Below are positions 16,687 through 54,100 of a stretch of DNA of 64,000 nucleotides, one piece after another (position 1 is the stretch's first letter; each line of letters opens with the position of its first letter). The DNA comes from Sphagnum compactum (lineage: Eukaryota). A program made the translations under genes and the position numbers. Location: positions 13,754,213 through 13,818,212 of the forward strand of contig OZ234493.1 in assembly GCA_965153455.1 (NCBI GenBank), in the 5' to 3' direction. The notes under the pieces were generated by a model. The model searched no databases. It worked only from the letters and a program-made list of their open reading frames with translations, and had not been told where the DNA came from.

Positions 16687-19600
16687 CTACTCTTCACACT
16701 ACTCGATCCAGGGATTATCATTGAGAACAACAAGAAAAACTTTTTGGTCACCAACCAAGGTGGAAGGTTATAGTTCAAGAACAACACAGGTGAAATTGAC
16801 CATGCATTGCTATTTTCCCCAAATGGATTCACTCCATTTGTGGCAAGCCCCAATCTGACATTTTTGGGCTCAACCCCAAATTCTAGCCAAGTCCTATCAA
16901 TGTAGACCCAAGCCTTAATATCAGGCACATGACAAATCTTCCCATCTGTGCTCTTATTTCGGCTATGCCAAGTCATGAGTTCAGCAATTTTTTGAACTCC
17001 AAACATGCGCAATAGCCTAGGAACCAATGGAAAATGTCGAATTATTTTAACGGCTACATTTGATTTGCCATATGCCTTAAAGCGTGCTGACCTACACTTT
17101 GGACATGTTTCCAACGTTTCATATTCCTTTCGAAACAACATACATCCATTAACACATGCACCTATGTTATTGTATTTCAAGCCTACCTTGCTATTTAAGG
17201 TTTTAGTTGCGTACATTGTTGGTGGCAAACAATTATCTAGTGGTAATAAATGCTTGTGAAATAATGCTAATAGTTCATCAACAAACTTGTTGGAGACACC
17301 ATGCACCTTGCAGACGTTCATCAACAGGAGTGTGGCTGCTAGCATTGATGACATGGCACCACTGTATAAGGGTTGGCATGTTTTTCGCAAGTATTGACCT
17401 TCACTAAAAATGTCTTCATCAAGGTCTTCTGTAAATCCTTCATGGTTGTCTCCTATGTTTCCTTTTGCATTGCCTTCATCTTGCCCTGTCATGCTCTCCG
17501 GCATAGCTGCCAACTCTTCCATGACATCACACACCTCTTGGACCATGCCAATTCCATCTTCCCTTGAGTTCGGGTTCAAGTGAGCATTCTCCATGCCTAC
17601 TTCAACATCTGGAGCTAGGAATAGATCATCTAAAAGTTATTCCATGTGGACACCTTCATCCACCAACTGCCTTGCTGTTTGTAATGACCCTTTAGTTACT
17701 GCAACCCATTCTTCATCAGAGCCATTGATTTCCCCTGGGCCTTTCCAAACTCTATACAAAGAGTGCCTACCATTCAAGATGAGGTGTCTTCGAACTGTGT
17801 CAAGCAAGATTGGCCTCCCCTTTCCTGCGCACTTATTACACGGACATCGCATTTTAGTCATGCCATGTTGTTGGGCCCATGACAACTCTCTAGCCCATAA
17901 CTTGTCATCCCTAGTGTAAGCCTAAAAGGATCATCTAGTTGCCTCCTGCCACTTGCCATGTTTTATCACTAATAGAAGTCTTTATTTTTGTGTGGTTTGC
18001 ACTATCACAATATCAACCGTTGGACCATTTACACGCATCCAACCAAAAAGGACAATGTAGCATCCGCCCACTCTCGTTGCAGTTGCATCTTGTTTAGCAA
18101 GCATGGGCAATCCAACATAATTGAATTGGCTCTATAGAAATGGATTGGATATAAGGAAAAAATATCTCTCCAAGTTTCATTAGAAGGAAGGTTTAAAGTT
18201 TTATTTCTCTCCATCCATGCATTTGAACAATAACTACAATGACATGAATAGAAATTAAGAATTTACACTCATCCTTCCTTTCAACTACACTCTTTTGTTT
18301 TAGACATATTCCAAATAAATTGATTAATCTAAACAATATAAGTGGCAACAATTGGATGTACCTAGAAACTTTTTGAATAATATAAGTGGCAACATGCAAT
18401 TGGATGTGCCGTGACCAAAGCATATCCGAAGGTAAGGTTGTGTGTGAATTCACCTCCTTGTGCTATGTTCCACATCCCTATGGATGGCTCCAAGTAAATC
18501 TGTACATGCAAGATAAAAGATTTCCCAAAGCATGGGATACTATTTTATGTGAAAAGAAGGAAATTTGGACTATTATGCCACTATGGTCACAAGGATGTCA
18601 ACCATCTCTTGGCTTTGAATAAAACACAACAAACCAACAAATGAAACATACCCCCATGTTTGTGTGTCATCCAACATTGGCGTCACCAATTGTGGGCAAC
18701 AATGGCTTTGACAACATATCAATGCCTACCACTTGCACACCCAACATAGAAAATCCAACATATAATTGCAAAAGTACCTGACATCTCATGACCTATCAAA
18801 TTATTTGAACAAGAAATGCATCACAAACAACAATATACCACAACCTCATGGAATATTAACACGAAGTATCCTTTGAATATTTCTTCCCAATTGAATCCTT
18901 GGGAAACAATAGACAAGTTTAGACATTAAATTCATTTTGATGAAGTCCAAGACTAGAATAAATCCAAAAGGGAAACTTGACTTGGTTGACTTGATCACGC
19001 TTGCTAATGAATCATGATATTGAGTTGTGGACACATTTAGAAATTATTTTCTCAATCATGCAAGAAATATGGTAAAAGTTGGTTAGTAGTTCCTTCTTGC
19101 AAACATATCCACAATGTCCATTACAATTCACAATTGGCTATCCTAACATACTTTACATGCTTGTAATAAGAATGGTGCCACTCAACTATGTGTAAACATA
19201 GAAAGATCAACAATCTACTAGCAAATCTTATCCCTAGTACAACTTCCAGTTACCAGTCCAAATCCTCAAAATGTAACTAGTTTACACACATGGCCATATT
19301 TTCACTTCTCCCAATAGACTGTTCAATGATTGGCAAAGATAATATCCAAACACATAAACACACAAAGGGTTGATGCCTCATGTAAAGGCTATATATCCTC
19401 ATTTTATAGTTTCCAAACAAGAACTTCGAGATAGGAAAAGACCTAAACCATCAACAATAACAACAACATCCACTATGATGAAAAAAAATTCACCTTGCCA
19501 AAAGGCATAATGTATTAGAAGGTAACTTTTGGATTGATAATGCTACAAAACTCAGTCCCCTTTCTTGTAGTTGCAATACGCAACTTCCACCTCATTGTCC

Positions 19601-23089: not shown

Positions 23090-24145
23090 TGTTATGAACT
23101 TTTTAAAAGCTTCAAAAAATTTACATAAGAAAAATATCCATGTCTTTCTTGAAAAGTCATTTGTGACAAAAGAAAGTACTTTGATCCTCCCAACAAAGTG
23201 TGTTTGAATGGTCCACACAAATTAGTGTGAAGAAACTTGTTTGTCTTGAGGCCATAGTCATGCTTTTCTTTGGCACAATTTCTTTGTGTTGTTTCCCAAG
23301 CATGCAGTCATAACAACTTTCAGTAACAATTGGTACATATAAGGCATTCCTTTAGAACTTCATGGCTTGGAAAGTTTGTGTAACCTTTGAAAACTAATGT
23401 GTCCCATTCTTTTGTGCCACAACTCCACGTTTGACAATTGTTTAATCAAGAAAAGGGATAGTGATTTATGTTGAAGCTTGTGGAGTTGAAGCTTCGAGCT
23501 TGTACAATCCATTCTTAGCATCTTGAACACCAAATGCCAAAACTTTCTATGGAATATTTGCTGACAAGATTCAACATTTGGCCTTTCCAAAAACTAGAAT
23601 GCATTCCATGTTTGCTACAACTCCTACTAACAAAAGGTTGCTCACAGATATTATTTCATCTTGATAAGCAACAATAGCAATGCCCTTGGCATGCACCTTA
23701 TGGGTGTGACCACTGGCATACTTGATATTTGTTATGTCTACTACCTTTCTAATGTTTGTGAACTTTCCCACATCACCCATGACATGAGGTGTTGCTCCTG
23801 AGTCAAGATACCACTTGGTATCCTTTTCATGAAGATGTGACGCTAGCATGGTGACTTCAAACTCTTTGTGAAAAAATTTCTCATCATCTTCATTATGCAT
23901 CTCCTGATTCTCCTCCATTGTGTTGACTTGCGAACATGTCTCGTTTGGAAAAAAAGGACATTCCTTTCCCCAGTGTCTAAGGCAATTACAACGATTGCAA
24001 TTTCGAAGGCATCGCAAAGTATTCTAACGATGACCATTTGGGTTTTGTGTTAGACAACCACCTTCTTTGTTTTGATGGGGAAAACCCCTCCCTGAATAAG
24101 AGCAAAACTTGCAATCAATCTAGGGCAATTACAACGATTGCAAAA
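23090..24145 (-). mobile_element. Ty1/Copia gag-pol remnant
   Basis: Zinc knuckle CNRCNCLRHWGKEC, protease WYLDSGATPH, GAG-pre-integrase LWHKRMGHIS, and integrase start (C..CMLGKQH, HTNLCGP) in Copia order; frameshifted. Confidence 0.85.
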
Positions 24146-29688: not shown

Positions 29689-32600
29689 TATCTTTCATAA
29701 GAATAGAGAAATCTCCATTCTCACGATGAAGAAGAAACAGCAAGGTTAACACTTTCTCAGGAAGCCACAGAAACAACCAAACTAGGGAAGACAGCAAACA
29801 AACAAAAAACGAAAAACACACACTGGTATGAACAAAAGTGCCAGCGTCACACCTGTTCAGGGACCATCAACAGTAGTATGTATGATAGTGACTTAACTAT
29901 CACAACTTCCCCACTGACTTCATCAGCTCCCTACAGTGGGTAAAGGCCGGTGACAAGCACCAACCTATGAACTGAGTTTCTGCTGCAATTCTGGAAGCAA
30001 CAGGAAGACTCAGCCATACTACTGGCTAGCAACAGACCCCGCAACAAAGACCAGACAAAGAAACAAAGAAAGACAGAAAGGGAAAAGAACAGGGAAAGAC
30101 TAAGAACAAGTGGGCTTACAGGAAGCTCCCAACTTACAAGACCCGAAGCAAAATCATTCTGAAAATGCCAAAAGCAGAAATTCCAGACAGGAATTTTTCT
30201 TTAAGAACCAACCCTCTAGTTCTCTTTAGAAGAACTTTTAAAGGGTAGCCTTTTACCTTCAGAAAGACAATAAGACTGACCATCTGGAAGACAAAAAACT
30301 TCTTACAACTACAAAGTCTCAAGAATCTGTAAAATCGACTATTGATAACCCCCAGCTTCGCAGTCATTGAGATATTGGAATGAACACGAGGCATTCTAAT
30401 CATTTCAATACCTGCATACTCTGGTTGAGAGCGTTTGTCAAAAATGTCACAGGATAAACCTTGAGGACTCCGTCTTACAGTTAGATCCAAGAAATTACAA
30501 GAGAAGCCTTTAGACATACAATTCAACTCACAAGAGATTTTTGGGTATATGCCACTACCGAAAGAGTCTTGGTTAAGGTACATGAAGTTCTCAAAATCTG
30601 GAAAATCAGGAACAAAAAGATCATCCACAAATCTACGAACCAAGGACAATCTATGAAGCACAACAGGACATGTGTTACTCTTCAAGAGACGCTTATGAAA
30701 TCAAACTCATAGGTAAAGAGATAGAAATTAGCCAAATAGAGCGCACAATTAGTACCCATGGGGATACCAATGCATTGTCTATAAACACCCTGACCAAAAC
30801 AAAGAATCAAATTGTCTAATAAGAAATCCAGCCAAGAGATCAAATCTGAAGCCTCTGCAACTTTGAAGCTATGAAGATTTTCAAACAAATTGATCTCTGC
30901 TTTATTTTTCAGCCACAAAAACCTAAAGTTCAAAGCTGTTTTTTTGAACCAACAAAAACTTAAAACGATGAAGCTTCAGCATCCGATTAAACACTTTATT
31001 TATCAGAACTCTCATACGAGCTTTTAGATCCACTAGGTCAATTTTAGTGTATAGAGTTGAGAAATCAAAAGACTGCAACAGAAGTGGGGAAGCTTTATCA
31101 ATTTCAGATCTTGAAAGATTAAGTTTATTTATTACCTCCACCACTCCTGTAGAGTCATTGAGAATCCAACTACTATCACAAGGACCATCTGCCTTTTTGA
31201 GTTTAGACACCCAAAGGTCATTGACCGTAGGAAACATAGCTTTGAAGAAAGAACACAGCCACTTAGAAACATCAGTCAGAGAAGTAGAGCTGGCTGCACA
31301 GATAAATCTAGGTTTAATTGGGTTTTTATGAAACTTCCAAACAGCACAAAGAAACGGGAGACGAGGGCCACACTTAACACCTTTAAAATTATGAGCCTTA
31401 TTAAAAGAGAGATGAAATTTCAGAATATCAGATTGGGCAAGATTGGAGACCACATATGTACCAACAGGAGAATTAAGCTCAGAGAAAACAAAAGAAACAT
31501 AAAACTTTTTACAAACAAACACAAAGTTGTTACAACATTTATCCATGTAAGTAATGACCAAGGACCGTTGGAGAGTCTTTAGGTGATCCAGATCTCCTAA
31601 AGGAACAGACAAAGAAGAATCAGAAGAGGTTTGAACCATGAAGGAAGCACGAGTCCTCTTCTGCATGAACAAAAGAACTTTGGCTTTCCACTCACTTAAT
31701 ATCCCTTGAACTACTAGAAGCTCTTCTTGCTTGTTGACAAACTTCTTAAGACCATTATCAATAGCTTCTTCAATAGACAACATAGACAAGAAGCCACTTT
31801 TGAACTATGTGCCTCTAGAAAAGAGTTCAATTAGACTGGGCCTTGAAAGGATATTAAGGTTAGCAGAAATAACATGACCATGATGGGAATCAATAAAACT
31901 AGGGAAATGAAAACAAGCACAACCAGAGTGAATAATTTTATTAACTTGAGAAGCACAAACAGATCTTCCCAATGCCCCATAGTTGAAAAACTCTTGACCA
32001 GAAGTTTTGACATATTTCCAAACAACTAAGGCAGGGGACCAAAACTTTCTAACAAAAGGAGGAAGACTATCTAGCACAGAAGGAAGGTTTAAAATGGAAT
32101 AGAGATTCAAACCATCCATATGAGAAGAAACAAAAACAGAGATACTGAGATCTCTGCCTAGGAAAGAGGCACTTGACAAGAAAGAACGAGGAACGTTTCT
32201 CTTAATAAAAATGCTCAAAAGTTTAGACAGTTGTAAAGCATGGCCAACATCAAGACTGAGAACAGAAGGAGAAAACTCAGACAACAACAAAAGCATACTA
32301 ACCAATTTCTTGGTCTTTTACTTGGAGAGGAACACAATAGAAAACTTACCTTGAGACATAAGAGAAGAAAGGAATACCAACCTTCTTTTGTAATCTCTGT
32401 AGCCAAAAATTCTGTGAAGAGTAGCCAAAAATTCTGTGAGGAGAAAGGTGTGGGACCCCACTATGATTTGGTTGCACATCGTCAGAAGGTGAACCATTCT
32501 CTTCAGAAACTGGCAAAGTAGGAGGAGGTAAACTTACAGAAACAATAGGAAGAACATTGACAGGAACCCAAACTTTGTTCTTAGGACGAGCAAAATGAAG

Positions 32601-33073
32601 GTTTGCTGCGCTTTCTCCACAACATTGCAGAAGCTTTATGCACCCTAGGAGACCGTCTACTGTTTGACTTGCCTTCTAGGTTGTAACCTCTTGGAAAGAA
32701 AGTGTGCAAAATACTCATCCATTTTCGTTCCAATTGAGAGGCAACAACCTTAAACAAGTTCAGAGCAAAACGGCCTTCAGAATCTAAGAAATTCCCTTCT
32801 ACTTTTTCAATAGGAAAAACTCTGAAGGAATGGAAACCCTCTTTGGCAATGGCAGCATATAGTGGCTTCAAATCAAAAGACTAACTTGCAAGCTTAGACA
32901 ATCTTTTAGCTTCTCTTATATGCTCTTGAAATCTCTCAAAGGCAGAGACTTACATGTTTGACCAACATATAGCATTCTACTATTATTGACACTGTAAGTA
33001 ACATGAATTACCCCCTTATCTGAAAATGGACAGAGGCTAGTTGAAGAATTAAGGTGTTTTTGCCTAAGCCTTC
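29689..33073 (-). mobile_element. Penelope-like retroelement with N-terminal GIY-YIG endonuclease (Naiad/Chlamys-like), decayed
   Basis: GVIHVTY..LYVGQT..FERFQEH..ERKWMSILHTFFPRGYN at 32580-33015, upstream of RT motifs KFHKNPIKPRFI, SFDFSTLYTKI, GIPMGTNCA, RFVDDL, FLDL; no C-terminal endonuclease. Flanked by a 20-bp direct repeat. Confidence 0.9.
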
Positions 33074-33834
33074 TAAGTACTGAAGAAAAGAAAGGTCAAA
33101 TGAAGGACAAAGCTCCAACTAAGACAACTTCCAATACATTACACTTGCCAACCATGAAAATGGACTCTCTGGTGTAGACAACATGGAAACACATTGAATT
33201 CCACAATACCATACAATACCTCTCATGAGTATCAAGAAATCTACACACTCACGATTGAGGAAAACAGGACCAGGGTGAAAAAAATTTGAATTCCACAATA
33301 CTCTACAAAATTGCATTAGGTTGTTGCTGAAAGAACAGAAGCAAACTTGTGATCAAATGCTGATGTGCAGACAAGAAGCATCCACAGTCTTGCAAATGCA
33401 GTAATTCCAAATCTGCAACTTCTGTGCCAAAACTAAATCACAGGCAAGTAAACCCAACAACATTTTTTAAACTACCACAGAACGTGAAGACAAGATCCAA
33501 GCTCAACACATCATATCCAAACGGAATACATTTACAAATCATGCAAAGAGAGAAAACAAGTTTTGGCAGCCGAAGAACTCAACTGACATGCACTTGCCCA
33601 AGCTATCTACATGAAATTTGCAACAAAAGTGAAACATGTAACAGGATCACAAGCATTGATCAATTCTCTAAGTACAAGTAGACAACATTCCTCTACAACA
33701 CAATATAAGCCTTGTAAGGCATGTATGCAGCAAAATTTGTCAATTCTGCAGTTCTCAGGCTTAAACCTTGCAGCTCCTGATGCTAGAAGTGGGTGCAAAA
33801 ACAGAAGCAAAAAAAGAAGGAAAAGGAAACACAC

Positions 33835-34047
33835 CCCTTCTACCCATCCTACAGCTGCTGTTGTGACAATGTCGATATATTTCTGTCGACCAAGCAAGCC
33901 GATCATGTAAGGATCTTCTTGGGCGAAAATAGGCAACGCCTCTAACAGTAAATGTCCTCGCTCTCCCTCCCCTTTTCTGTGCATTGCAACTGCTTCAACT
34001 TCGCCTTTTGGTGTGTTGTCCTCTTCTATTGCATCCGAATCAATCAT
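33835..34047 (-). CDS. Probable upstream exon of the zinc-finger gene
   Basis: Open frame MIDSDAIEEDN..AVGWVEG ends at a phase-0 gtgtgt donor compatible with the acceptor at 29377; start codon uncertain. Confidence 0.4.
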
Positions 34048-34424
34048 GTCCTCACCAATGGAGGCAATAATGGTTGTATTGGGAGTTCTTGGTAGAGCGT
34101 ACCAAGTGGTAGCGTGTGTACATCGACATCTACACTCAATGCTTCCATGAAGTGCAAGCCAGAAAAAATCAAGTGAGTAAACCCTAAAGCTTCTTTGCAT
34201 TCCTTGCAAGAAGACACTGATTTCCATTAGTTTAGTGTGTGGTGGTGACCAGGATATCTTCGTGCGGCTATTTTTAGTATCCATTTGTGGCAGGATGGGA
34301 AGTGGCAGGGATGTTTCAGCATGTGAGTCTCCTTTTTGACAGAATTGTCCATGTCCCACTGGTCCATCAATTCAGTCTACTGCTTCAGGAATCAGTAATG
34401 AGCCCCTGTAATGAATGCATCGTG

Positions 34425-34750
34425 TTTTTTGTTTCAGCGTCATCACAGATTGAGTGAAGCAGACTGTCAAATTCTCCTTTGCAATGGATCATGCAAGTGT
34501 TTCAAGTGTACTACTGTATTAGGGTCTTGTATTTGCACTGTCTTCATAGAAGCTTAGCATCATGTTTTTGTTTCAGCATTATCACAGATTGAGTGAACTA
34601 GACTGTCAAATTTTCCTTTGCATTCAGGAGGACATTGCAATGGATTGTTGTCAGGATTGAGGACATGGCAATGGATCATGCAAGTGGTTCAAGTGTACTA
34701 CTGTATTAGGGTTTTGCATTTGCATGATGGTCTTTATAGAAGCTTAGTTT
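34425..34750. repeat. Two-copy tandem duplication; second copy carries an extra about 48 bp
   Basis: tttgtttcagc..tcacagattgagtgaa..atggatcatgcaagtg..tagaagcttag occurs twice. Confidence 0.8.
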
Positions 34751-36202
34751 GTCAAATGTTTTTGTCTCTCTCCAAGTTCAGATCTGGTTGTGCTAAAAGA
34801 AAAGAATTTTGGTAGTAGATGTTAGGTTTTGACAGGGAGAGATCTTGGATCAGGGATGTTTTGCAGAACAACAGAAATTTCAGTCATTTGCAGACTGTAG
34901 TATTGTGCACCAGCTGTTCCAGTGGATTGAGGACCAACCTACAGGTGGATGAGCCCACTTGACAGAAGGGTGCCCATTTTGCAGGAAGAATGTCTAGGTT
35001 TTACTGTACATTTTTTTTGTACCATGAAGTTGCTCACAGCATCAAAAAATAAAAATCATAGTTAAGATTCAAGCACTGAAGCTGCATGGAGTGAGTGAGT
35101 TACATCAGGGTGCAAATTCTTTGTACAAAACTGTGTAGAGTTACATAGCAAAAAACAATTTCCACAAAGTTCAACCCGAGCAGTTTTATGGAAATTGGAT
35201 TCTTTTGAGTTTTTTCTACATCCAAAAAAGGATCACTGTCATGCAAAGATTCCAAGTCTCTCTTTGTTCTGACACCTCAATGGGCTAGCATGCTGTTAAT
35301 CTGCTTAAGAGATCAACAGCAAGATCTATAGTTCCATAAAGAGAGCAGTTTCCTAGTTGTGCTGAGTGCAGATGTCATGGTCTTCTGCTTATGTTTTGTC
35401 TGGCATGTTCACAGTCTTGGTTTTGATGGAAGTTCCGAGTAGTGTCGTCTGATCTTTGACGATCTCATGGAGCCTGTTGTGTGTACTGAAAGGTTTGATT
35501 CTTTCCAGGAGGTCATTCAATAACTGATTTGTGTTGTGTTTGCATACTATTTTCTTGCACCATCTTTGAGCATATATGCAACCATGTTGCTTAAAGGTTC
35601 AGAATATCCCCAAGTAAATGATTGCAGTACCATGCCATGATGGGTCTGACCTAGATAGGTTTAGATTCTCATAGACACATTCTGGCACAAGTTGGCTTGC
35701 TTGAGCTCTGGTGGTGATGTTGTTGAACACTTGTTTTGATTCTCCAGGAGAAAATCGATTTTAGACTCGAAGCTCCTGGTAGCCGTGAGCACGTTCACAA
35801 TGCATTCCATAACGGCAGTACCCACCTTCCCAGTCTCTACATAATGTAGTTTTGTAGCAAGTGAAGGGGATTTGGGCATAATGACATTGTGCTCCTTGGA
35901 CATGACGCCTGCCATCATTCATGTTTACATACTTTACTCAGAGAGAATCAAGGTCACAGGTACATCCAATGTGCTTTCTTCATTCACATGAGCATGAAGA
36001 AAGCCCATAAATCACTTCTTGTTACAATACAAATATTTCTTGCCTGCTTGGGTATGGCTTCCCCCAACAAGATCTTTTCTTCACTTTTCTATTTTCAAGC
36101 TGCCACCCAAGCTGCACATCTCATTTGGACTGGCATTTTCATCCCTAGAATGTTGATTTTCGCTACATTTCCTTTTCAACTATGCCCAGCTTAAATCCAG
36201 AG

Positions 36203-38047
36203 TCAAGAAGTTTGAATGTAGTACCTAGTCTTGGGGAACAGACAGTTGGAGTTCTGAATTGCTGAGTTTGCAAGAGCATGAGCCTCAGCATTGCATCTCT
36301 TGGGGATGAAGACAATGTGACACGTTGTAAGTTGGTCAAGAAGTTCCTGCACTACACACCTGAGGTCTGCAACACTCCAATGACATGCTGTCCACTTTCC
36401 TGTTATCTGCATGAGAAACATGATGCTGGATTCTGACAACGTAATATGAGAGAAAATTTTGGTTGACCATGTTTTTGTGCATCTTAAAAGGATCTTAAAA
36501 CCATGTTTGATATATGTCATCATGGTAAATATCCCATTGGATTCTTCGAATTGAGTTGATTTCTTAAAGATCCAAGATCTATCCTCACCAGTTCAGAGAC
36601 CTAGCATTTAGAAAGATAGGAAAAAAGTCTCAGTTTGGTGCAAAAATAAGTGGGCTGTGAAATTGGTCATGGTGATTCACAACGGGATGCAGAAGTATGG
36701 TCTCTAACAACAACCCTCATCTGGAGAAGCAGCATAGAAGTTCAGGTTGCTGTGTATTCATAAGTGCCAACCTGGTTGAAGACAGTGAGGGAATCGCACA
36801 TGATGGTAAGGTGCTTCATTCCTCTCTTGAGTGCAATGTCCAGTCCCATAAGCAGGGCTGTATACTCTGCCACATGCACCGAGCAATGCTTTCCCAAATA
36901 CTCGCTCACTGTTGCCACTTCCAGCTCCTATTCAAGAATTCCAAATTTTTTTTTGCCGATGTTTTCTTCATTATTCCACTTGAAACCAAACCAAATCTCC
37001 GAGAGTCCTTGTCTTTCCAATGTACTACTAGTAGTAGTACTACCTCAAGTACAGCCAAAACTAGCAAAATTGTTGAGCTATCAATCACACAATTTGGTAG
37101 AAACAAAATATTTACAACACCCACTCCAGAGTCCAAATGGAGTTATTTCAATCACACATCAGGTTTTGAACAGCATACAAGGGTGGCCACTTTGATCAAT
37201 TTTTGTGCTGTGTGTACACACACTCTTATTATTGATTTACCTTCAAAGGTGTGATGAGGAGTGCGCCACTGCCTGCAGGCCCCAGAATTTGACCAGCAAC
37301 AGGTTTAGCAGTGGCTCCACTGAAATACAGCCAGTACGGAAACCTTCGTGAGCCTGTCAAGCACGTCAACAATTGTCTCTCAGAACCCTACTTCGCAAAA
37401 CAAATTGGCATATATGTTGTTAACTCACACGAGCAGTGGCAATTGAATCTATGGGTTGAGCAATGCACTTGCATGAATCTCAAGGTAAACTTCACACAAA
37501 ATGTGGGGTGTCAATGGTCTTTTCATGACTTTTATATCTAAGTTAAACATGATGGAATTCTGCTGCCCCACTAATCACTTTCTCTAAAACAGAACATACC
37601 CAACATCCCATGTGACTGTTTTTTTGTTTGAGAGTTTTTTTTCGGGTTGATAATTAGGTCTCCAATAATGAACTTGCCACAAATTGCTCAAATCTCACCT
37701 GACCATGGAGTGGGATCCCCAACAAACCTTTCTTGGAAAAGACTACGAAAGTCCTTCCAGGTGCCATGCTCTGAGAACTTCAAATTGTGAGCCCATTCAT
37801 ATGCTTTGTCAAACAGAGCGAGGAGTACTATTTGAAGCTTTTGCCTGCCATCAAGGAGTTCCTGAATTGTCCATCCTTCATAGTTGTAGATCCAGTGCTT
37901 TGCAAATTGCTCCGATTCTGTACCATAGAAAGGGGAGATCTCAATGCTCCCTTTCGTAGCTTGTGGGTATTCATATCCATATGTTGCTCTTACACTAAAC
38001 CTCACACTCAGGCTCAACGAATACCTTCTTGCTGCTGCTGGTCCCAT
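36203..38047 (-). CDS. Spliced gene encoding a Gag-capsid-like domain fused to an RNase H1-like domain (273 aa as modelled)
   Basis: Exons 38047-37699, 37353-37241, 36927-36772, 36406-36203 (822 nt, in frame, GT/AG). RNase H motifs WLYFSGA..GPAGSGALL, AEYTALLMGL, IMCDSLTVFNQITGKW, IPKRCNAEAHALAN. Gag-like LALFDKAYEW..TWKDFRSLFQERF. Confidence 0.7.
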
Positions 38048-39148
38048 GTATCTTCAGATCCTCTTTCACAATATCATAATGAACCACCTCAAATCAAACT
38101 TATTTTCTCGCCCAGTTGCACTATTAAAAGCTTGGGAAAACCTTCACAATCTTCACAATTTTGAGACAAAAAAATGCTTCACAAAATCTCTCATAAAAAT
38201 TTGTCAAGAATCTCCCAGGTACTAAAATCGGAACTCTGATCCCAAGTACCTTCTGAGAGTAAATTAATAGCCCATATTTTATTGAGACCAAAAACACTAC
38301 TTTTGGGCTCTCCTTCCTACTTTCCAATCTCTGATCTCCAAGCCATAGCCATACCTTTTAACATCAGGTGAGCTTCAAAGGCTACTCTTGCTTGTAAGCT
38401 TTGTGATTTTTTTTCCTTCTGGTGTATGCTTGTTGGGATAATACAAAAGTAGCATGTCCAGAAGCTGTGCTTCCACAATTATAGGATGCCCCTGGACACA
38501 CACCTCAACAAAAATCCCGGGTTTCTTTTGTGCCACAGATCATCATCATGGTTTTGGGCATCACCATGCATGCTTTGGGTGGACAGCACCATGCTTTGGA
38601 GATAGAGAGCACCATGAGATTTCAAATCTTTCTGACACTACAATTCGGCATTATTGAAAGATAACAGTGTGTATATACATTTGAGGATAATCCTCTACAC
38701 TACTTGCCTGAAATCACCACCTCCATTCCGCAAGAACTGTTCTTGTCAGGAGGAAAGAATGAGGAGGCAGGGGGGAGGGAGGAGTGAGAGTGGAAAAGCT
38801 TTGTTGATGAAGAGGAGGAGGGCCATTGTTGTCCAGTGGCCTAAAACCGTTATGACCTTCCACCAACTATAAACTGTCGAACTCGGGCAGGGTTCAACTT
38901 TTGATTCTATCTGCCCAATGTTGAGCTTCAGCCCCTATTACTATAGTAATGAGAACCACATTCAGATGAAGAAAACCCTGTATAATAAATTAAAAAAAGG
39001 GAGCAACAAAAACCCATCCATAAGAAGTACAGGGCAAATAGAAGCACAAGAACACATGTCATGAAAGAACATAACAAACAGGACACCACTAACACACTAA
39101 TAAAATAGAAGACTGGAAACTAAAAAAGCTCGTCTGTCATAGATCACA

Positions 39149-39437
39149 TGTCATAAATTGGCCAACGACGAAGGTGCACTGGCTGCGATTAGTGGAAGAG
39201 ATGAGGAATGCCTCTCTTGTCTGTCATAAATCAGCTAGCGACGAAGGCATACTAGTTGTGATGTGTGGAAGAGATGAGGAATGCTTCTCACATGTGTCAT
39301 AAATCGGCTAGCAACAAAGGTGCACTGGCTGTGACATGTGAAAAAGATGAGGAATGCTTCTTTTGTTTGCCATAAATCGGCTGGCAACGAAGGTGCACTG
39401 GTTGCGACGTGTGGAAGAGATGAGGAATGCCTCTCAA
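39149..39437. repeat. Tandem repeat, 4 x 73 bp
   Basis: Units start tg(t/c)cataaat at 39149, 39222, 39295, 39368 and share aaggtgcactgg-like and agatgaggaatgc blocks. Confidence 0.9.
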
Positions 39438-40914
39438 GCATGACAACACACTGAAAAATCGCAATGGCCTACACACATTGGAGGGTTATAGACACACGTT
39501 GCCAATAAGAAGAAATAAACATTGTGAGAACTAAAGATATTCGGGTACCATTAGTGTTGGTTGGTCCAGGATATTGGGCCAATTCCATCTACTAACCCCA
39601 TTTAGGTACATACCAGTGTTGTGCAGTTCTTAGGTTGTAGGAGGAACCTCCAGTTTTGGTTCCAAAAAAAGTTATGGGGCTGATTCTGGTTACGATTGGA
39701 TTAGGTTCTTTTTCTTCATAAAATTGGAACTTGGTTCTGGATCTGGTTTATTTTAATGTAAGGGTCACTTCCCACTCGGTTCCTCTAACCTCCCCTAACC
39801 CCGATTCGAGTTCCTTCTCAGAGTGTTCCCATCTTGGACCTGGGTCCAGTTTAGGTTCCAGATAACCAGAACTGAAACCGACAACAAGTACCTGAATGGA
39901 AGCTGCTCTACCAAAACCAGCTGCAAATGAATCATCCTCTCTAGTTCATCCATCCTATCTAGAGTTCCCTAGCTCGGGTCCCTAATAGGCAGGTACTGTT
40001 AGTAGGCTAGTATTGCCTTCAGTCAGAACTGTCTGGTAGGTTCTTTGATACCAAGACAAATTCCAATCAATATACGTATACTAGGATTCCAGCCTGATAC
40101 CCACCCAACACTAATATATACCACACAGGCCCGCCCGAGATAAAAGATTTGTGTAGTACTAAAGTTGAAACATTGGTTGTAATTGTGTTGTTGGTCTGGT
40201 GTGAAACCCTTGTGATCCAAACAAAAACCCTCCTGGCCCAGGCTAGAAAAACTAACCCCACCCTTGTGATTCCCAAACTTCATCTAGTGGCATCAGTTGC
40301 AACTCCAGTCACTTCACTAACTACAATCTTATTGCAGTCCTAATCCAGACTTTTCCACATTGGTGGGACAAATTAGAAAAGCATAAGCAAAGCACAAGCA
40401 CAACTACTGCTGTAAATCTGTGTTACTAATCCATTTGCATCTCTAATCGGTTCACTACCTCCAATCCTAATGCAGTCCTAATCCCAGTTTTTTCCCAAAT
40501 CAGTGGACAAATTAGTGACCAAACCAAGCACAAGTCCTTCGTACCTGTGTCATGCTTCTATTGTGAGGTTCAAAAGCTGCACAAAAACTTCCCAACGCTG
40601 TTATCTGTCAGATCAACAAAGTAATCACTGAAGGTGAGTCATTCATAATATCAAGCACAACAACATGTTGAAATATTTTTCATAGAGAGTATTATTATAC
40701 AGGTGGCAAAATGTTTATCCCATATGACATACAAATTGAGCTGCCATGATTATTGCACTAGTGCCTTCGTATGTGTCCAGTCTTTGATCGACTTAGCTAT
40801 CCCCCTCTTAAACCTACTTAAAATCAAACTGTACATGAATGGAAATTGTGTTGGCAATTGTGGATACAAAAATCCCAAACAAATGCATCTTACACATTGG
40901 GAGGTCTCACTCAC

Positions 40915-41870
40915 TCAATCAACCCAGTTTGTATTAGTCACCATGGCAAAGAAAGAGTATGCATCACTGATTTCATCAATCTGCAACCAACACACACTTG
41001 GTCTCTTCAGCACAGTTTACAAAAGAAGAAGAGATATTTACCACCCTATTACTATTGGCAGAACTATATGCACACAGCTGCATCCTCAAACAGAGAGAGA
41101 CCTTGTGCAAGCAACCAATGTTGAGACTGATCATCCCTCTCAAAACAAGAAGCCCAATAGAAGATACTCACGACTTTCTGAGTTGGGCGACCAGCTCCCT
41201 GGCCAGCCTTAGTATCAATTCGTGCATTCAATGGGTTTGTCTGAGGACTACTCTCCAAACTAGTGCAAAGCTCATACTGCAATGTCTGCTCCCCATCAAC
41301 CCACCAGGCCTAATTCTTTTAGTTACCTTCCATGATCATTGCCATACAAGTGCTGACAACAACTGTGAAATTTGAACCTGCCATAGCACCTGAACTATTT
41401 TACTGCCATCATTCTGTTCAAGCAATGAAATCATTGGTAACTGAGATATACTTACTGCAAGAAGTTTCAATGAATGAAGGGGACCACTCGATCATCATGG
41501 TCAGCAGTTAACAACATGGTGGGCGGATACTGTACTCCTGGCATCTGCTCCCATGGCCGCCTCACATTATGCAATGGTGAATATCTGCACAAAGCATTCA
41601 ACAGTTGAATGAATAGTGAAACAGTTTTGAACTCAGGTAATTGCCATGCACATGATGTGAATCCAAATGTATGCAAGGAAGTCTTGTTGAAGCAATGGAG
41701 AAGTGAACTGCATAAATTGGTGGTGACAATCAGGGACATAATAATGCTTATGACAATTGTGCTGGATGGTAACAAAGATATGTTGCAAAAAAGTGGAAGT
41801 GCTCACTTGATTAGCAATCTAAATTCCTCTTCGTTATCAGCACACCCATAATCTGAGGACCATGCATGCC
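40915..41870 (-). pseudogene. Prolyl oligopeptidase (peptidase S9A) 3' fragment, last four exons with introns
   Basis: [46 protein letters not shown], then a 1-bp deletion before HSLKLLA; LQYELC..RIDTKAGQGAGRPTQK (catalytic H to Q); IDEISDAYSFFA..WVD stop. No upstream exons seen. Confidence 0.88.
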
Positions 41871-43371
41871 CTGCATGCATTAGAAAATGCCCACACCATC
41901 AGAAACCATGATTCAACTATGGAACTGTATCCTGAAGCTTGGAGGAAATCTGAAGTTTTGGGTAGAATCCATTCAGTCAAATATTCAGAGTGACTTTCAG
42001 AGACAGTATATTCCAATGAAACACAATATCATGTGTCAACATTCGGTTTGTCCCAATGAAACACAATATTTTGGAAGTCCCCTTATTTTGTGTTTGAGAT
42101 TCCAAAACAGTTGAATAGCAGCCTCAACAAAACAAAATTATTATGTTATTTTTAGACATGTTAAAAATTTCAAAAAATATATTTCTTTCAAAGAAAGGGG
42201 GAAAAAAATATTGTGAAGGAAAAAAATGGACCCATCTTTCAGAATATTTGGGAATATTATATAGTTGAAAATGGAATTTTCAGAGTCAAATAATTATTTC
42301 CCAGAGACCCAACCCGATGAACCTGCTGTTCAACTAGGGTATTGGAAAGTGTGATTGAATGCTAATTGTCTTCCTTCATGTTGTGTTGGAGTGTTCATTT
42401 TGGGTTTGAATTCATGCATTGACTTAGTTTTGATTTGGATTTGTGTGCATGGCTGTCAGAAGAACTCCATGCTTTCCATATTGAGTACAAACATTGACCA
42501 ATTTAATGATATACTCCATTTGCAATAGATAGGTGGTTGTTGAGGAAATCCAGAAGTGAAGCCTCAAATGAGGATTGTGTGAAATCTGATGATGTGCACA
42601 TGGTGGAGGGACACACAGAGTACAACCAACTCATGAGTTTGTCAGGTACAACCCAAATGCATGACTCTCTAGAGAGAGGGTGGGCACTGATGATGGCCTG
42701 TGTTTAACCAGTGTGGACTATTGCACAAATGTCTGGGCACTGGAGCTGCAGTCATTGGGCAAGTCGTCCTATGTGCAAGGTCAGTGCAGGAGTTTAAAAG
42801 TCAAGTGTCTGTTCATGACACATGCTGTATAGAGTGGGTTGATAGCAAAACTTATGGATTGTCCCTCTTAACAGTAATGAATTCTGCAGCAGGAGACCTA
42901 CCACACATAGTACAGTTGCTGGCTTACAACAACTTGAGCTCTCTGGTTGTGACGCCTAAGAAGACACCCCTCACACCATGGCAGATGACACTGCTGGAAG
43001 TCTTCTGTCTGAAACCAGTGCACTACTATTAAACTTGAAATTCATTTGCACCAGGAGTACAAAGAGCCAAATCCTTCAACAAAACAAAACAGTCAAGAAC
43101 CACCAATCCTGATGCAAAATACTTCACTAATCCGGAACAGCAAATGGAAACTACAGTGGTTCTACACTGTAACACAGCACCATTTGCAAAACAGATACAT
43201 CACCACAGAAGAATTACATGATACAGAACCGAAAGCCAATTCCCTATTTGCACCAGAATTTTACTCAGAATCTGCCTTGATAAACATCAGCTTCCTGGAC
43301 AGAAATTTGTGAATGCATGCACTAGGCATGCATCAGACAAGCTCAAAGCCTAGTATCAAAACCTAGTGCTA

Positions 43372-44254
<883 letters not shown>

Positions 44255-44401
44255 GGTTGCTGGAGGCGAAAATACGCGACAAAAGTGGTCGAGATTCGGG
44301 CAAAGCGAGGTCGCGCGCGAGGGAGACGCTAGAGTGCGCGAGAAAGAGAGCAAGCGTAGCCGCGAGAGAGAGCCTTTGTTGCGAGCTTGCTGATCGCCGA
44401 T

Positions 44402-44409
44402 TAGGGTTT
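44402..44409 (-). promoter_or_regulatory. Telo-box (AAACCCTA) upstream of RPS30
   Basis: tagggttt on +, about 150 bp upstream of the ATG; typical of plant ribosomal protein promoters. Confidence 0.7.
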
Positions 44410-45379
44410 CATCCACATCTTTCATCCAATGTTTGGGTACCTAGGAGTGGTGGGCGGTTCCTCGACATTTGCCTTCCTTTCTAATTTTCTTGAATTTCAA
44501 ATAGATAATTTTTAGAAAATTTGATTTTTTAAAAAATTTAATTATTGCCAAACATAAAGAGATATTTACAATAGACAAGATGGTGAGGATTGTGAGGTAG
44601 CTCTATTCTTTTAATGAGCATGATATTTTGCGCAAAAAAAATTTCTTTTTAAAACAAAATGTGATACATTATTGCGGTTAAATGAAAAAAAAAAATTGGT
44701 TTTTTTAATCATGATGTCATCAAATATTACTTCTTTCTTTTGTTTAAAGTAGTATGTAAAAATATTTTATATTATGTTTCACAAATAAATTTTAAAATTT
44801 ATGTATGGATGTCATTTTTCATGTAGGAATATATTCATTTAGTTAATGTGAAGATAAATGTGTATATTAACTACAAAATTATTTTTTTTCAACATTACGA
44901 GTATTAGTTATTGGTATATTCATAGAAATATCATCATCATAATTACAACATATAGTGACAATAATAATTGGTGATGAATGAAAAACATTTGTTGAATTTA
45001 CACAATCACATCAACAATGCAATTATTTGACCTATGAGAGAGGCATTTTGACTTATTTTATTTTATTTTAATCTTTTTTTAGATAATTTTCTTTAGGGCA
45101 TATATTTGATTTTTTTTCTTTTTAAACTTGTGTTGGTTGTTATGGGGGAAACTATCAATTATAAGCTTTCGTTTCAACAAAATTGCAAATAGGTGTTCAT
45201 AAGAACCCCTATTAAGTTTGAACAAAAATTCAATTCCATCTAATTTTACACACCTCATTATTATGTTTTCATGGTTCATTTTCTTTGAGAATCCTAATTA
45301 TAATGATAGTAATACATTGTCGAAGCTCTTCATTGTTTGTTTGATTTCTAATCACAATGTTAGATGTTTTTCTTTTGAT

Positions 45380-45700
45380 TGTCGGTTGGTCTTTCTATCA
45401 ATATATTTATGTTCACATGTTCCAAGTGTGGACAAATGGTTCAAAATGCATGCCAAGTTGGTAGAGATATGCCTAGGTTTCTCAAAGGATAATGAGGCAC
45501 ATTGAAAAAAATGGAGCTCTATATACAATGACTACATACTACATAGAAAACAAGGTAATAAATTTCAAATTAAATAACTTTCGATAGATTAGAAAAATGT
45601 CATCAATTGGTATATGGCCTTGTTGATGATTTCATGTATGAATGTACCAATATTGTTTCCCATGCCCATGCAAATGCATTTGATTTTGAAGTGATAAGCA
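45380..45700 (+). pseudogene. Myb/SANT-like ORF remnant, probably the Harbinger second ORF
   Basis: DKWFKMHAKLVEICLGFSKDNEAH*KKWSSIYNDY has trihelix-like Trp spacing; convergent with the Harbinger transposase remnant. Confidence 0.45.
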
Positions 45701-47059
45701 AACTCTCACATCATTAAATATTACCATTAAACTTGAAGGTAGAAGTCTTAAAAGTTTGAACAATAACAAATCCTTAGAAAAAATGTTTAAGTGAAATTAA
45801 AAAGCATGTCAAAAGTATGATGCAAACTTTGAAAGTTAATGATGATTTCAAAATGTTTAAATGTTTTCTAAATGTTTAGAAAAAGGTATGCCAATGGTGC
45901 ACATCTCTTCCTAAATTGAAGATTATAGACCCATTTAAATTTTTGATGGCAACCAACTCATTAACTACATGAAATCTCCATGTAAAATCACTTTGACATG
46001 AAACATATGAACCCATCTTCTTGAACCTTAAACATAGCAAACTTTTGAATAAAAAGAATATGACGTTGACCTTGAGTGCTACACATGTTGAACTAAAGTT
46101 TTCACTTGTTTAGTTGTTTGTAATTTGATTATACAAAGTAACAAATACTAGATTGGATGCAAGGGATTAGGGTGCATGCACTCTAAAGTGGCTCATTTTC
46201 AGTGAATGCTCCATTTCTTAAAAGTCCATATGATAATGTTAAAATGGTAGTTTATTTAGATATCATTAATTTAGTGAGGAATTACATGGTGATTAATGAA
46301 CTAAAAAACCCATATGAAAATAAGTCATTCTAATTTATTTTTTAATGTACATGTTAAAAAAATAAAACTAGAAATCCACCAAAAAATGATTATGATAGGA
46401 CTTATGAAAATATGGCTCATTTTAGGCCATTCAAAAGTCCATAACTTTTTTTTGGTTAATTTTTTTCTAGCAATTTTTTTGCAAATATGTTCTGTTTGTT
46501 TTAACATATCATATATTGAGTCCCTATAATATATCCCAAATAAAATTCATACACAAAAATGCATGTGTATAAACAAGAAATCACTCCATATTTTTCAACT
46601 TCAAAAGTCCATTACTATATATTTAGTGTATATATGTTATAATTTTTAAAAATAATTTCTTCTTTTCCAAGTTGAAAATCTAAATCTAGCCACAAATTTG
46701 AAAAATGATTATTTTTATGTCATGTTAATAGCATGTAAATGCACGCCATTTTGCAAAAAATTGGATTGCGACACAAAAAGTGAACCACCTTATTTTGCAA
46801 CCACCCACTATAATAGAAATTGGATTTTAATATGTGACTTGTATATTAAAATTGTTGAAATTTAGACCTTGCCTTAAGTTCCATTTTTTCCTATTTGAAA
46901 ATCATGTAAGAAAAAATGAACTTGAGTTTTATTTAAAAAGATATGTTGGTGCATTGTGACAATTTGAAATTTTTTTTTGTTTGTTGTTTCATGGTTTCTA
47001 TGGCTTCATAACATGTTAGTAACAACAACCATCCTTTCTTGTCATAAGAATTGTAGAAC

Positions 47060-51159: not shown

Positions 51160-54100
51160 ACGTTCGTTTCGGACTAGAGAGTCCATTAGACGAAAGGTAG
51201 ATCATGGAGGACATATTGTCCTCTAGTACTGGCAGCATGCCACAAACTTGGCCAGGGCGACCGTGTTCATGGTCTGCATGAGCTCAACAACAGTGCAAGT
51301 GTGGGTGAGGGGCAGGGCCGAACAAAAGCGTTCCCTAACTTTCTGTGTGTTTGGACAAACAAGAAGCAAATGTTCTTCATCCTCAACCTTCCCCAAATTG
51401 CGGCCTTGACAAAGCCTCTCTGCGTATGGCACGCCCTTCCACACACCTAGCACTACCTCAAGCTGCGTGTTGCCACACCGAAATTGGGACAGAGCTTTCC
51501 GCAGCTGAACACAGCTGATGTCACACAAGTAGTTTTCGCTCTTGTACAACATATCTTTGAAGCGCAAGTATCTTGTTTGCACGTTGGTCTCGATCTCGCG
51601 GTTGATAAACAGCTTTTCAATGTAAGCCAGCCGCATATTATCCTTCACCTTTTTACACTCAATATTGTGTGGGGAAAACCTGGAGGGGGTGGGGCCCCAG
51701 CCTCCTGGTTGATCGGGCCTCCTGTCGTAGATCTAGCACCAATCGGCTGCATTAGTTGTAGCGCGGTCAACTTAGCCATCTGAACTCCCACCCGTACGTT
51801 GTGTGCGTTGCACCAAAATACTTGGCTCTCCGCCCAGCCTTTCACCCCTGCTAGACAGGTCGTATGTATGTGTGTTGTCCCATGAACCGTTCCCAGTGGC
51901 GGTTGAGCAGTCCTCGCCTGAAGCGCACGAGTCGTTGCAAGCTTAAGCGCCATTTCCAATGATGGTTGAACCGGAGGCAGAAAATCTGCCACCTCCTGGG
52001 GTTGATTCTTGAGTAGCCATTTTTTCACGGATCTAGCCCAGCATTTCTTTCCCGCAGCAAGCATAGCGAGCTGGGCTTCCCATGCCTTTCCCAAGATGCG
52101 GTCTTTAGTGACCGTGCTCACATGGTTATAGTACAACAACGCTTGTCCCCATGCAAAGTGTTCAAAGGGGAATTTGTCAAATTCTGCCAGCATGATGGAC
52201 GTGCTGGTTGTTTTTCGCACCTCGAGCACGGACTTGAGGAACCTTCGATACACTATTTCAATAACCTTTATTTTCTTGGAGTCCACCCAAACCTCACAGG
52301 CATAGCTTGCTGTGGAACGCACCAACGTGTTGAAGAGGTCACAACGTAATTGGACGTCCCTAATACGTAGCTCCGTACAATGGCGGTTTAGTGCGAACAG
52401 TGAGCGCTTACTGGCAGTTGTTAGATGTTCCACTACACTGTCTAGGTTTGAGGTGGTTTCGAGCAGGATCCCCAAGTATTTGAAGGTCTGCACACGTTCA
52501 ATAGTGTCACCTTCAAACACAAACTCTTGGCATGGGTTAGCAGAGTTGAACACCATGACTTTTGTTTTTTTCACGTTCATTGTGAGTCCACGTTCAACAC
52601 ACAACTGCTGGAACGCGTCTAACTGTTGTTGCAGTCCCACCTTTGATTCCGACGTCAGAGTAAGGTCATTTGCAAAAAGCAACAGCCATACGTGCACGTC
52701 TGCTAGGGCCGATGCATCGCATTTTCTGCCATTTAAGCACCCTTCCAAGGCATCCAAATATAGCCCAAACAGTAGGGGGCTGAAAGGGCAACCTCGCTTC
52801 ACACCTTCCTGGCACCTAAAGATGGAGGTGACACCCTTGCTTGGGTGGTTCATGCGTACGGTATCCTTGGCATACATCGCCTGCAGGCATCGCAAGAAAC
52901 GTCCCTCCACCCTGAGGCCAGCCAACACCTCCCACAGCACTTCACATGGCACAATATCAAACGCCTTTTTGAAGTCCACAAAGCAACAATAGAGTGGCTT
53001 CTTTTTTGCCTTGCTCTATTCTATTAGAGTTTGCAGCATGAAGAGTTGGTCTGTAGTGGGGTAATTTTGCGAAACCCAGCTTGACCTTTGGCACGCAGCC
53101 CATGTTGTTCAGCCCGCTCGCTTAGCCTTTTGTCAAGGATCATAGCGAACAATTTTGCTAGGATAGGCCCAATAGTTATCCCCCTGTAGTTGTCAAATTT
53201 GGAGGCATCGGCCCCTTTAAAGAGCATGTGGACCACCCAAGTGGAAAGGGCTTTTGGAAAGTTTTCTGCTAGAAAGCAGTTAAACGACGTTAATAGTGGC
53301 ATGTGTAGCAGCTCTCCCGCATCCAAAATGAATTCAGCTTTCATATCGTTATATGGATGGCGGAGACTAGCAAACTAGCATGCGGAAGCCTTCCAAAAGC
53401 ATGGCTACATTGATTTTGTCCACAACGGGTACTTTTTCTAGATTGAGAGTGCATCCACCTTGGTAAGCGTACACATATGTTGAGCTCTTGTAGTTTTCAA
53501 GAAAATTCTTTTCCTTTGTAATAACTTTTTAAGTTTACTTTCCTGATGTTTAGCGACGTGCGAATCGGGGTTGGCTTTCAGCCAGAACCTCAGCTCATGT
53601 TTCGCTATACGGCAGTCAGCGTCAAACCATGGTTTATGGCAGTGTCTCTCTCTGCAGTTTCCTCCCAAAGGCTTGTTGCCAAAAGTAGACTTTGCTGCAG
53701 CACCCATGCAATGCTGCAGTAGGTTAGCTAACCCGTCTGCCCCCAGATGCCCAATTGAGTCAACAACCCAGAGGTTTCCAAGATTCGCTATTAGGGCAAG
53801 TTGATACTCTTCAGCTTTCAATTTATCATATTTGAACCTAGGTAAAAAAAAATTTGTTACAATTGTATGTTATGGCTCAACAAAGCTACAATCGATGTTC
53901 GACCGTAGGCATAACGGCCTGTGTTCAAAGTCTCCCCTCATTGCGCAGTAGCGGGTGTCATCTCCTATCACCTTGAGGTGTCTAGCAACTTGCCAAATTG
54001 TAGGTGAGCCAACAATATAATCGACAATGCTACGCCCCCCATTTGCAAGCAAGTGAACTCCCCTTATTCGTCACCAGGTGTCCAGCCATTGAGGATGAGC

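Follow-up and report, generated by a model that had tools for sequence, protein, structure and literature searches.

A probable host gene family of the peat moss Sphagnum compactum that joins a capsid N-lobe to an archaeal-type RNase H and a CCCH zinc finger

The co-option of gag genes is a familiar phenomenon in animals. RTL8 and LDOC1 are mammalian domesticated Ty3/gypsy capsid genes that possess only the N-terminal lobe (N-lobe) of the capsid protein, as presented in the available sections of PMC10516033 and PMC11684626. The plant co-opted gag genes listed in the main text of PMC8321522, Crtg8 to Crtg11, are all four from angiosperms, and Crtg10 is fused to host KELP. Nuclear RNase H1 of plants is of the archaeal type, with two loci in Physcomitrium according to the accessible part of PMC9409398. 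In Tat long terminal repeat (LTR) retrotransposons, a single locus encodes Gag together with an archaeal-type RNase H; moss Tat-like elements are without this RNase H, and a conserved Arg is named (PMC4408406, as far as available). Here we describe a minus-strand gene, at positions 38047 to 35761 of a 64,000-nucleotide (nt) stretch of the Sphagnum compactum genome (contig OZ234493.1, positions 13,754,213 to 13,818,212; hereafter the window), in which parts of these kinds meet. We identify it with high confidence as a peat-moss host gene of a small, old family, formed by exon shuffling that brought together a capsid N-lobe, a CCCH finger of the TIS11 type and an archaeal-type RNase H with introns. 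Its features are as follows.

38047-37699, minus strand (349 nt): exon 1, with the ATG and a Ty3/Arc-type capsid N-lobe, residues 1-116; it ends at W-x-G with a phase-1 intron.
37353-37241, minus strand (113 nt): exon 2, RNase H strands 1-2, containing S128.
37321-37319, minus strand: S128 codon AGT, at the first catalytic Asp position.
36927-36772, minus strand (156 nt): exon 3, RNase H strand 3, helix A (E175, 36867-36865) and strand 4 (D199, 36795-36793).
36406-36225, minus strand: exon 4, C-terminal half of the RNase H with K242 and H249; phase-2 donor after 36225.
36280-36278, minus strand: H249 codon CAT, at the last catalytic Asp position.
36224-36203, minus strand: read-through end of exon 4 with TGA, closing a form of 273 amino acids (aa) if intron 4 is retained.
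35908-35761, minus strand: exon 5, linker and one CCCH zinc finger (C290-H308, 35841-35785), then stop.

Like RTL8 and LDOC1, the moss gene is a selectively conserved host gene whose capsid part is the N-terminal lobe alone; RTL8 has been shown to form no particle alone, and the same would hold here. It differs in lineage and kingdom, in having the lobe as the first exon of a fusion to RNase H and CCCH, and in that no full-length domesticated partner is known for it. With Crtg8 to Crtg11 it shares gag co-option in a plant, those being angiosperm events, and the main text of PMC8321522 contains no match for moss, Sphagnum, RNase H, RVT, CCCH or kinase. Plant RNase H1, represented in this genome by L032 and L034, has the same RVT_3-type domain, fold and phase-0 intron between Q and V, whereas identity is about 34%, an N-lobe and a finger stand in place of the hybrid-binding domain, two catalytic Asp are lost, and the other RNase H1 introns are missing from the moss gene, which has introns of its own. 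No gag or CCCH fusion is mentioned in the accessible parts of the plant RNase H1 accounts PMC9409398, PMC12652420 and bioRxiv 10.1101/572842. Unlike the Tat elements of PMC4408406 (as far as that text is available), the gene has no protease, reverse transcriptase, integrase or LTRs, and spliceosomal introns lie inside its RNase H. On testable features, namely capsid homology, purifying selection, low copy number and lack of LTR or pol context, the gene is of the co-opted gag kind, and it is not an active RNase H1, a Tat element or a capsid-forming Arc-type protein. No published description of an architecture of half-capsid, RNase H and CCCH was found in a search that lay outside most subscription papers.

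The first-pass annotation had joined four exons into a stop-free 273-aa frame, and its coordinates and frame are borne out: with exon 4 read to 36203 (204 nt), the join measures 822 nt and encodes 273 aa plus a stop with no internal stop, and all three introns have GT..AG ends. The gene probably does not end at 36203, where that annotation placed its end, because an in-frame fifth exon follows, with the CCCH finger about 300 nt downstream, reached through the donor after 36225 and the acceptor before 35908 and giving a protein of 315 aa. Exactly the same five-exon join appears in the database model CAK9231167.1 of Sphagnum troendelagicum (P0059), which is itself a prediction. The TGA of the 273-aa form is kept in all three of the related loci that cover it. 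Exons 2 and 3 lie in open frames of just 52 and 61 aa, short enough to explain their absence from the open reading frame (ORF) track. The join goes beyond chance, as exons 3 and 4 separately pass the RVT_3 cut-off with consecutive parts of the profile (expectation value [E] 1.6e-10 for profile positions 31-75 and 5.3e-5 for 76-123), and the order of the exons repeats at four other loci of the genome.

Exon 1 is a Ty3/Arc-type capsid N-lobe. A profile of 15 rows matches the dArc1 N-lobe with E 3.4e-5, and three of the four chains at E <= 10 are dArc. The predicted model of exon 1 is confident (predicted local distance difference test 89.9), and in a fold comparison with 48,161 chains (VIA-align) dArc1 comes first (Z 9.2, root mean square deviation [rmsd] 3.0, 77 aligned residues); every row at Z >= 5 (14 of 14) is a capsid or capsid-derived protein. 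Foldseek with the same model puts the same proteins at the top, with a best E of just 7.9e-3, and the Pfam Retrotrans_gag match (E 7e-4) stays below the cut-off. The earlier description of this exon as resembling a retrotransposon capsid helix bundle thus agrees with both profile and fold. The first named Atlas feature match is FAM127A-like, and we take FAM127A to be an RTL8 gene; the Atlas feature search with the whole protein gave no usable match. Drosophila Arc1 and Arc2 and mammalian Arc, the top profile and fold matches, differ from the moss protein in that Arc has both lobes and forms capsids, whereas the moss protein has neither the C-terminal lobe (C-lobe) nor a CCHC knuckle and shares 23-26% identity. 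The capsid match covers the N-lobe only (dArc1 residues 50-120), and strand 1 of the RNase H begins at residue 123. Besides the N-lobe, exon 1 bears a conserved N-terminal strand-helix extension. Because the C-lobe is missing, the lone N-lobe would be unable to build a capsid of its own.

Residues 123-262 are an archaeal-type RNase H, matched by Rv2228c in sequence (E 2.7e-12) and in fold (rmsd 1.4, E 1e-12), in agreement with the type-1 RNase H previously placed in exons 2-4. The codons likewise read as had been reported: Ser replaces the first catalytic Asp and His the last, and the Glu and the middle Asp are kept. The site of the window copy, called C1 below, therefore reads S128, E175, D199 and H249, with K242 at the position that is Arg in most active relatives. 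The Ser is common to C1, its paralogue C18 and the related protein P0064, and position 249 varies within this branch (H, E, Q). The first Asp of RNase H1 binds both metals, and its loss abolishes cleavage; with that residue gone, the window copy probably cannot cut RNA. A nuclease that is still active, tolerating S128 and H249 or having rebuilt its site, would be in keeping with the retained fold, E175 and D199, and last-Asp changes are tolerated in E. coli RNase HI, of which a D134H structure stands among the rows of the RNase H fold search. The metal-binding role of the first Asp and the freedom of position 249 to vary make such activity very improbable.

Exon 3 ends at a phase-0 intron between Q and V/I, the same as in host RNase H1 genes, and four host loci, the two RNase H1 genes and two further RNase H-like ones, have the intron between Q and V. 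On account of this shared intron, the RNase H part appears to stem from an intron-bearing host lineage and not from retroelement pol. Its derivation as a direct copy of the RNase H1 genes of this genome is not supported, with one shared intron position and about 34% identity. An RNase H tree of 12 rows leaves seven of its nine inner branches open and does not place the origin of the family.

Elsewhere in the genome, L012 (C10:11197299) and L031 (C7:14460826) are intron-bearing host genes with degenerate RNase H sites and with His in place of the second Asn of active enzymes. L012 runs on into a RING-like region and is presumably of the RBR-ligase type. Two intronless RNase H genes lie on small contigs, L016 (C475:66452-66835), with a complete active site, and L023 (C612); both may represent contamination of the assembly or viral DNA.

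The finger of exon 5 is single, with the spacing C-x7-C-x5-C-x3-H and a YKT lead-in, and matches Pfam zf-CCCH (E 1.2e-6) as well as finger 1 of TIS11d and of TTP (E 2.7e-7 and 3e-5, respectively). Tandem CCCH proteins (TZF/TIS11) differ in having two tandem C-x8-C-x5-C-x3-H fingers. A predicted model of the full protein shows three separate modules (predicted template modeling score 0.53) with low-confidence linkers at 112-120 and 261-277.

A metagenome scan gave four related loci from 188 pattern matches; L049 is almost identical to L048 and hence not independent, and L047 is partial. Relative to the window copy, L046 has 15 synonymous changes over 207.7 sites and 5 non-synonymous changes over 737.3 (p 4.8e-7), and L048 has 16 over 207.8 and 10 over 737.2 (p 1.2e-5), corresponding to non-synonymous to synonymous ratios (pN/pS) of 0.09 and 0.18. 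The gene is under purifying selection and not in neutral decay, which agrees with its earlier interpretation as domesticated. Pooled synonymous to non-synonymous changes are 8:3 in the N-lobe, 11:3 in the RNase H, 2:5 in the linker and 3:0 in the finger, where the numbers are small; each domain is constrained, and the linker is not. Splice sites are intact in the related loci (all eight in each of three, all four that the partial locus covers), none of the four has an exonic indel, S128 is present in all four, and H249 is also unchanged. In run X20, none of the 12 listed indels falls in an exon (p 0.03). Between C1 and C18, synonymous sites are saturated and dN is 0.3-0.43, so the dead site has been kept over a long time.

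A non-functional remnant, whether chance neighbors, a decayed retroelement or an unspliced pseudogene, could account for the lack of a junction in the RNA contigs and for contigs that retain introns, for the broken paralogue C10b and for a neighborhood rich in mobile elements. The pN/pS values, the kept splice sites and the indel-free exons largely refute it, together with the like order and intron positions in five loci, an uninterrupted ORF with all three junctions in the 57%-identical P0064 and the lack of any LTR-sized repeat in 30000-46000; what chance is left to this explanation is very small. No pol domain was found between the exons or in the nearby ORFs tested.

The family comprises five loci in the genome, a lower bound; three queries gave the identical set, and a fourth gave three of them. 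Each locus has an N-lobe exon followed by RNase H exons, and the four intact copies have two introns in common, in phase 1 after W-x-G and in phase 0 between Q and V/I; the broken copy, C10b (L009), has donors at the matching places. All four acidic residues are present at one of the five loci, three intact copies lack the first and last Asp, and one copy is broken. The complete member, C10a (L008:6659-4840, minus strand, on C10 near 15.557 Mb), has three exons, the last with a CCCH finger, and the catalytic set D-E-D-D plus Arg, which make it a candidate active member; C10b lies about 110 kb from it. At the first and last Asp positions, C8 reads Gly and His, and C18 reads Ser and Glu; C8 also has a finger remnant behind a stop, and C18 a different, Cys-rich fifth exon. 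Since C10a carries the finger in its last exon and C8 keeps a remnant, the finger is probably ancestral to the family.

Against 1.84 billion representatives, exon 1 matched 12 proteins; similarity stops at W-x-G in 10 of the 12, and the matches include one liverwort type and one Brassicaceae Gag-domain protein. P0064 is 57% identical to the window protein, carries the same Ser and is encoded by one ORF on a 1413-base contig in which the three RNase H-side junctions are closed. The contig would then be a spliced cDNA, and a retrocopy would look alike. P0064 may be a C18-type gene, mainly by its RNase H identity (67% versus 60%); exon 5 of C18 matches its tail weakly (E 0.004, 19 residues). Named orthologues are from Sphagnum only. 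Word-limited searches, which cannot establish absence from Physcomitrium, Marchantia or vascular plants, gave no longer relative by exon 1 alone among 127 candidates, and two relatives at E <= 1e-5 with P0059 as the query. Three pattern matches in viral contigs were all unrelated to the gene.

The exon 1 profile has a single longer match, a protein of Calypogeia fissa in which this N-terminal domain is joined to a protein kinase (E 4.3e-25), and a second protein record has the identical N-lobe-kinase fusion. In the liverwort proteins P0047 (CAM6095177.1), P0048 and P0049, the N-lobe is directly joined to a plant receptor-type cytoplasmic kinase domain, a fusion that fits a portable docking module. 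A profile of the four intact paralogues gives the liverwort domain 54 bits, the Brassicaceae Gag 16 and resident Gag at most 6.7; elsewhere in the scoring, resident Gag reaches a maximum of 14 bits versus 52-68 for the liverwort domain, the resident sample being 49 loci, mostly of two families. These scores point to moss and liverwort N-lobes being one domain family. A single origin of the two follows from the profile scores and not from the N-lobe tree (15 rows), in which the split from three transposon Gag rows is weak (70/80), long branches meet and the four paralogues fail to group together.

The same comparison bears on whether the protein is a restriction factor, in which the half-capsid, as RTL8 does with PEG10, would co-assemble with Ty3/gypsy Gag particles; it would block their assembly and deliver the finger and the RNase H, which would cut in C10a and only bind in the window copy, to reverse-transcription intermediates. 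N-lobe-only RTL8 enters and reduces PEG10 particles, and its action is species specific (PMC11684626, available sections), an indication that close kinship to the target is important. The genome has at least 150 scored Gag matches, the contents of a retroelement particle would suit all three domains, FAM127A-like is the first named Atlas match, and the family shows duplication and loss of members. The resident Gag sampled is, however, very distant (at most 14 bits), and the four close relatives show strong conservation and no sign of an arms race. We consider restriction unlikely on balance.

We tentatively favor, at somewhat less than even confidence for the whole mechanism, a non-cutting RNA-binding adaptor in which the half-capsid serves as a protein-docking module. 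The finger, and perhaps also the surface of the dead RNase H, would hold RNA or RNA:DNA hybrids, and the half-capsid would dock a cellular protein partner. Such a partner might be another family member, for example the catalytically intact C10a, which would be targeted or damped. By analogy, the precedent of functional N-lobe-only genes (PMC10516033, available sections) would favor an adaptor. The earlier interpretation of the locus stands in its capsid similarity, RNase H, altered site and domestication, and fell short in missing the CCCH exon, the five-locus family with its one catalytically intact member and the limitation of the capsid part to an N-lobe.

Several observations weigh against the adaptor and the gene model behind it. 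Two further Sphagnum records, also database predictions, join exons 1-3 and end in intron 3, giving models only 215 aa long. The RNA check covered 4 of 24 listed runs, and the raw-read run X24 gave no reads and hence no test; none of eight low-depth metatranscriptome contigs (five from X1, three from X4) contains a junction of the gene or covers exon 1. Four contig pieces cross out of an exon and continue for at least 31 bases of intron; the sole spliced contig (run X4, depth 6.55) is antisense:

35253-36185, plus strand: antisense transcript, separate from the gene and overlapping its exon 5 and its intron 4, with a GT..AG intron at 35493-35747.

The joined antisense stretch shows no clear protein family. 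Lying over the 3' end of the gene, this transcript may account for the unspliced pieces. The finger is single; C18 and P0064 lack it and C8 has it in decayed form, so that it is dispensable for some members. In the RNase H, the T-N-N motif that precedes the catalytic Glu in active relatives is S-V-H here, and Pfam finds no hybrid-binding domain in P0059 (only RVT_3, zf-CCCH and a weak Retrotrans_gag). The branch of C1, C18 and P0064 has moreover acquired invariant Cys and His residues, and for these reasons hybrid binding is doubtful.

The replaced motif would also suit an RNase H fold remodeled into a metal- or protein-binding scaffold without nucleic-acid contact, like that of plant RBR ubiquitin ligases. 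C1, C18 and P0064 have eight invariant Cys/His positions; C169, C198, C214, H215 and C235 occur in none of nine other rows, and C244 in one. The His at position 172 recurs at L012, an RBR-type locus with a dead RNase H, and the Arg position of active relatives varies (K, R, P). This Cys/His pattern is, however, defined by three sequences only, all three of which retain E175, D199 and N245, and the window copy retains a constrained RNA-type finger. A scaffold of this kind seems to us a little less probable than restriction, and both stand well behind the adaptor.

The remaining features of the window lie around the gene.

1882-5686 and 59376-63771, plus strand: two similar units about 57 kb apart, each a serine-esterase-like ORF followed by NB-ARC and LRR exons (flank region).
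13652-17636, 23571-24023 and 51645-53015, minus strand: CACTA transposase pieces, a copia-type pol piece and a reverse transcriptase frame.
30134-32317, minus strand: broken reverse-transcriptase-like frames with GIPMG and VDD motifs and no Pfam match, which we take to resemble a Penelope-like element.
39149-39436: tandem array, repeated every 73 nt, at about 1.1 kb upstream of the ATG.
43369-43881, minus strand: ribosomal protein S30 match.

A bryophyte case adds to the four plant gag co-options listed in the main text of PMC8321522, all of them in flowering plants. Catalytically intact and dead members in one genome form a built-in pair for testing, and the occurrence of the half-capsid on a kinase in liverworts suggests that the module is very old and reusable. 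If retrotransposon particles are targeted, the gene would represent transposon defense at the protein level in plants, whose known route is RNA silencing. More speculatively, and in our view improbably, the half-capsid may have been domesticated before the moss-liverwort split and may found a capsid-recognizing bryophyte defense family, in which the moss form would be packaged and destroy (C10a) or block (the window copy) RNA:DNA intermediates and the liverwort kinase form would signal. If true, this would be the oldest known plant gag co-option and the first with a nuclease payload.
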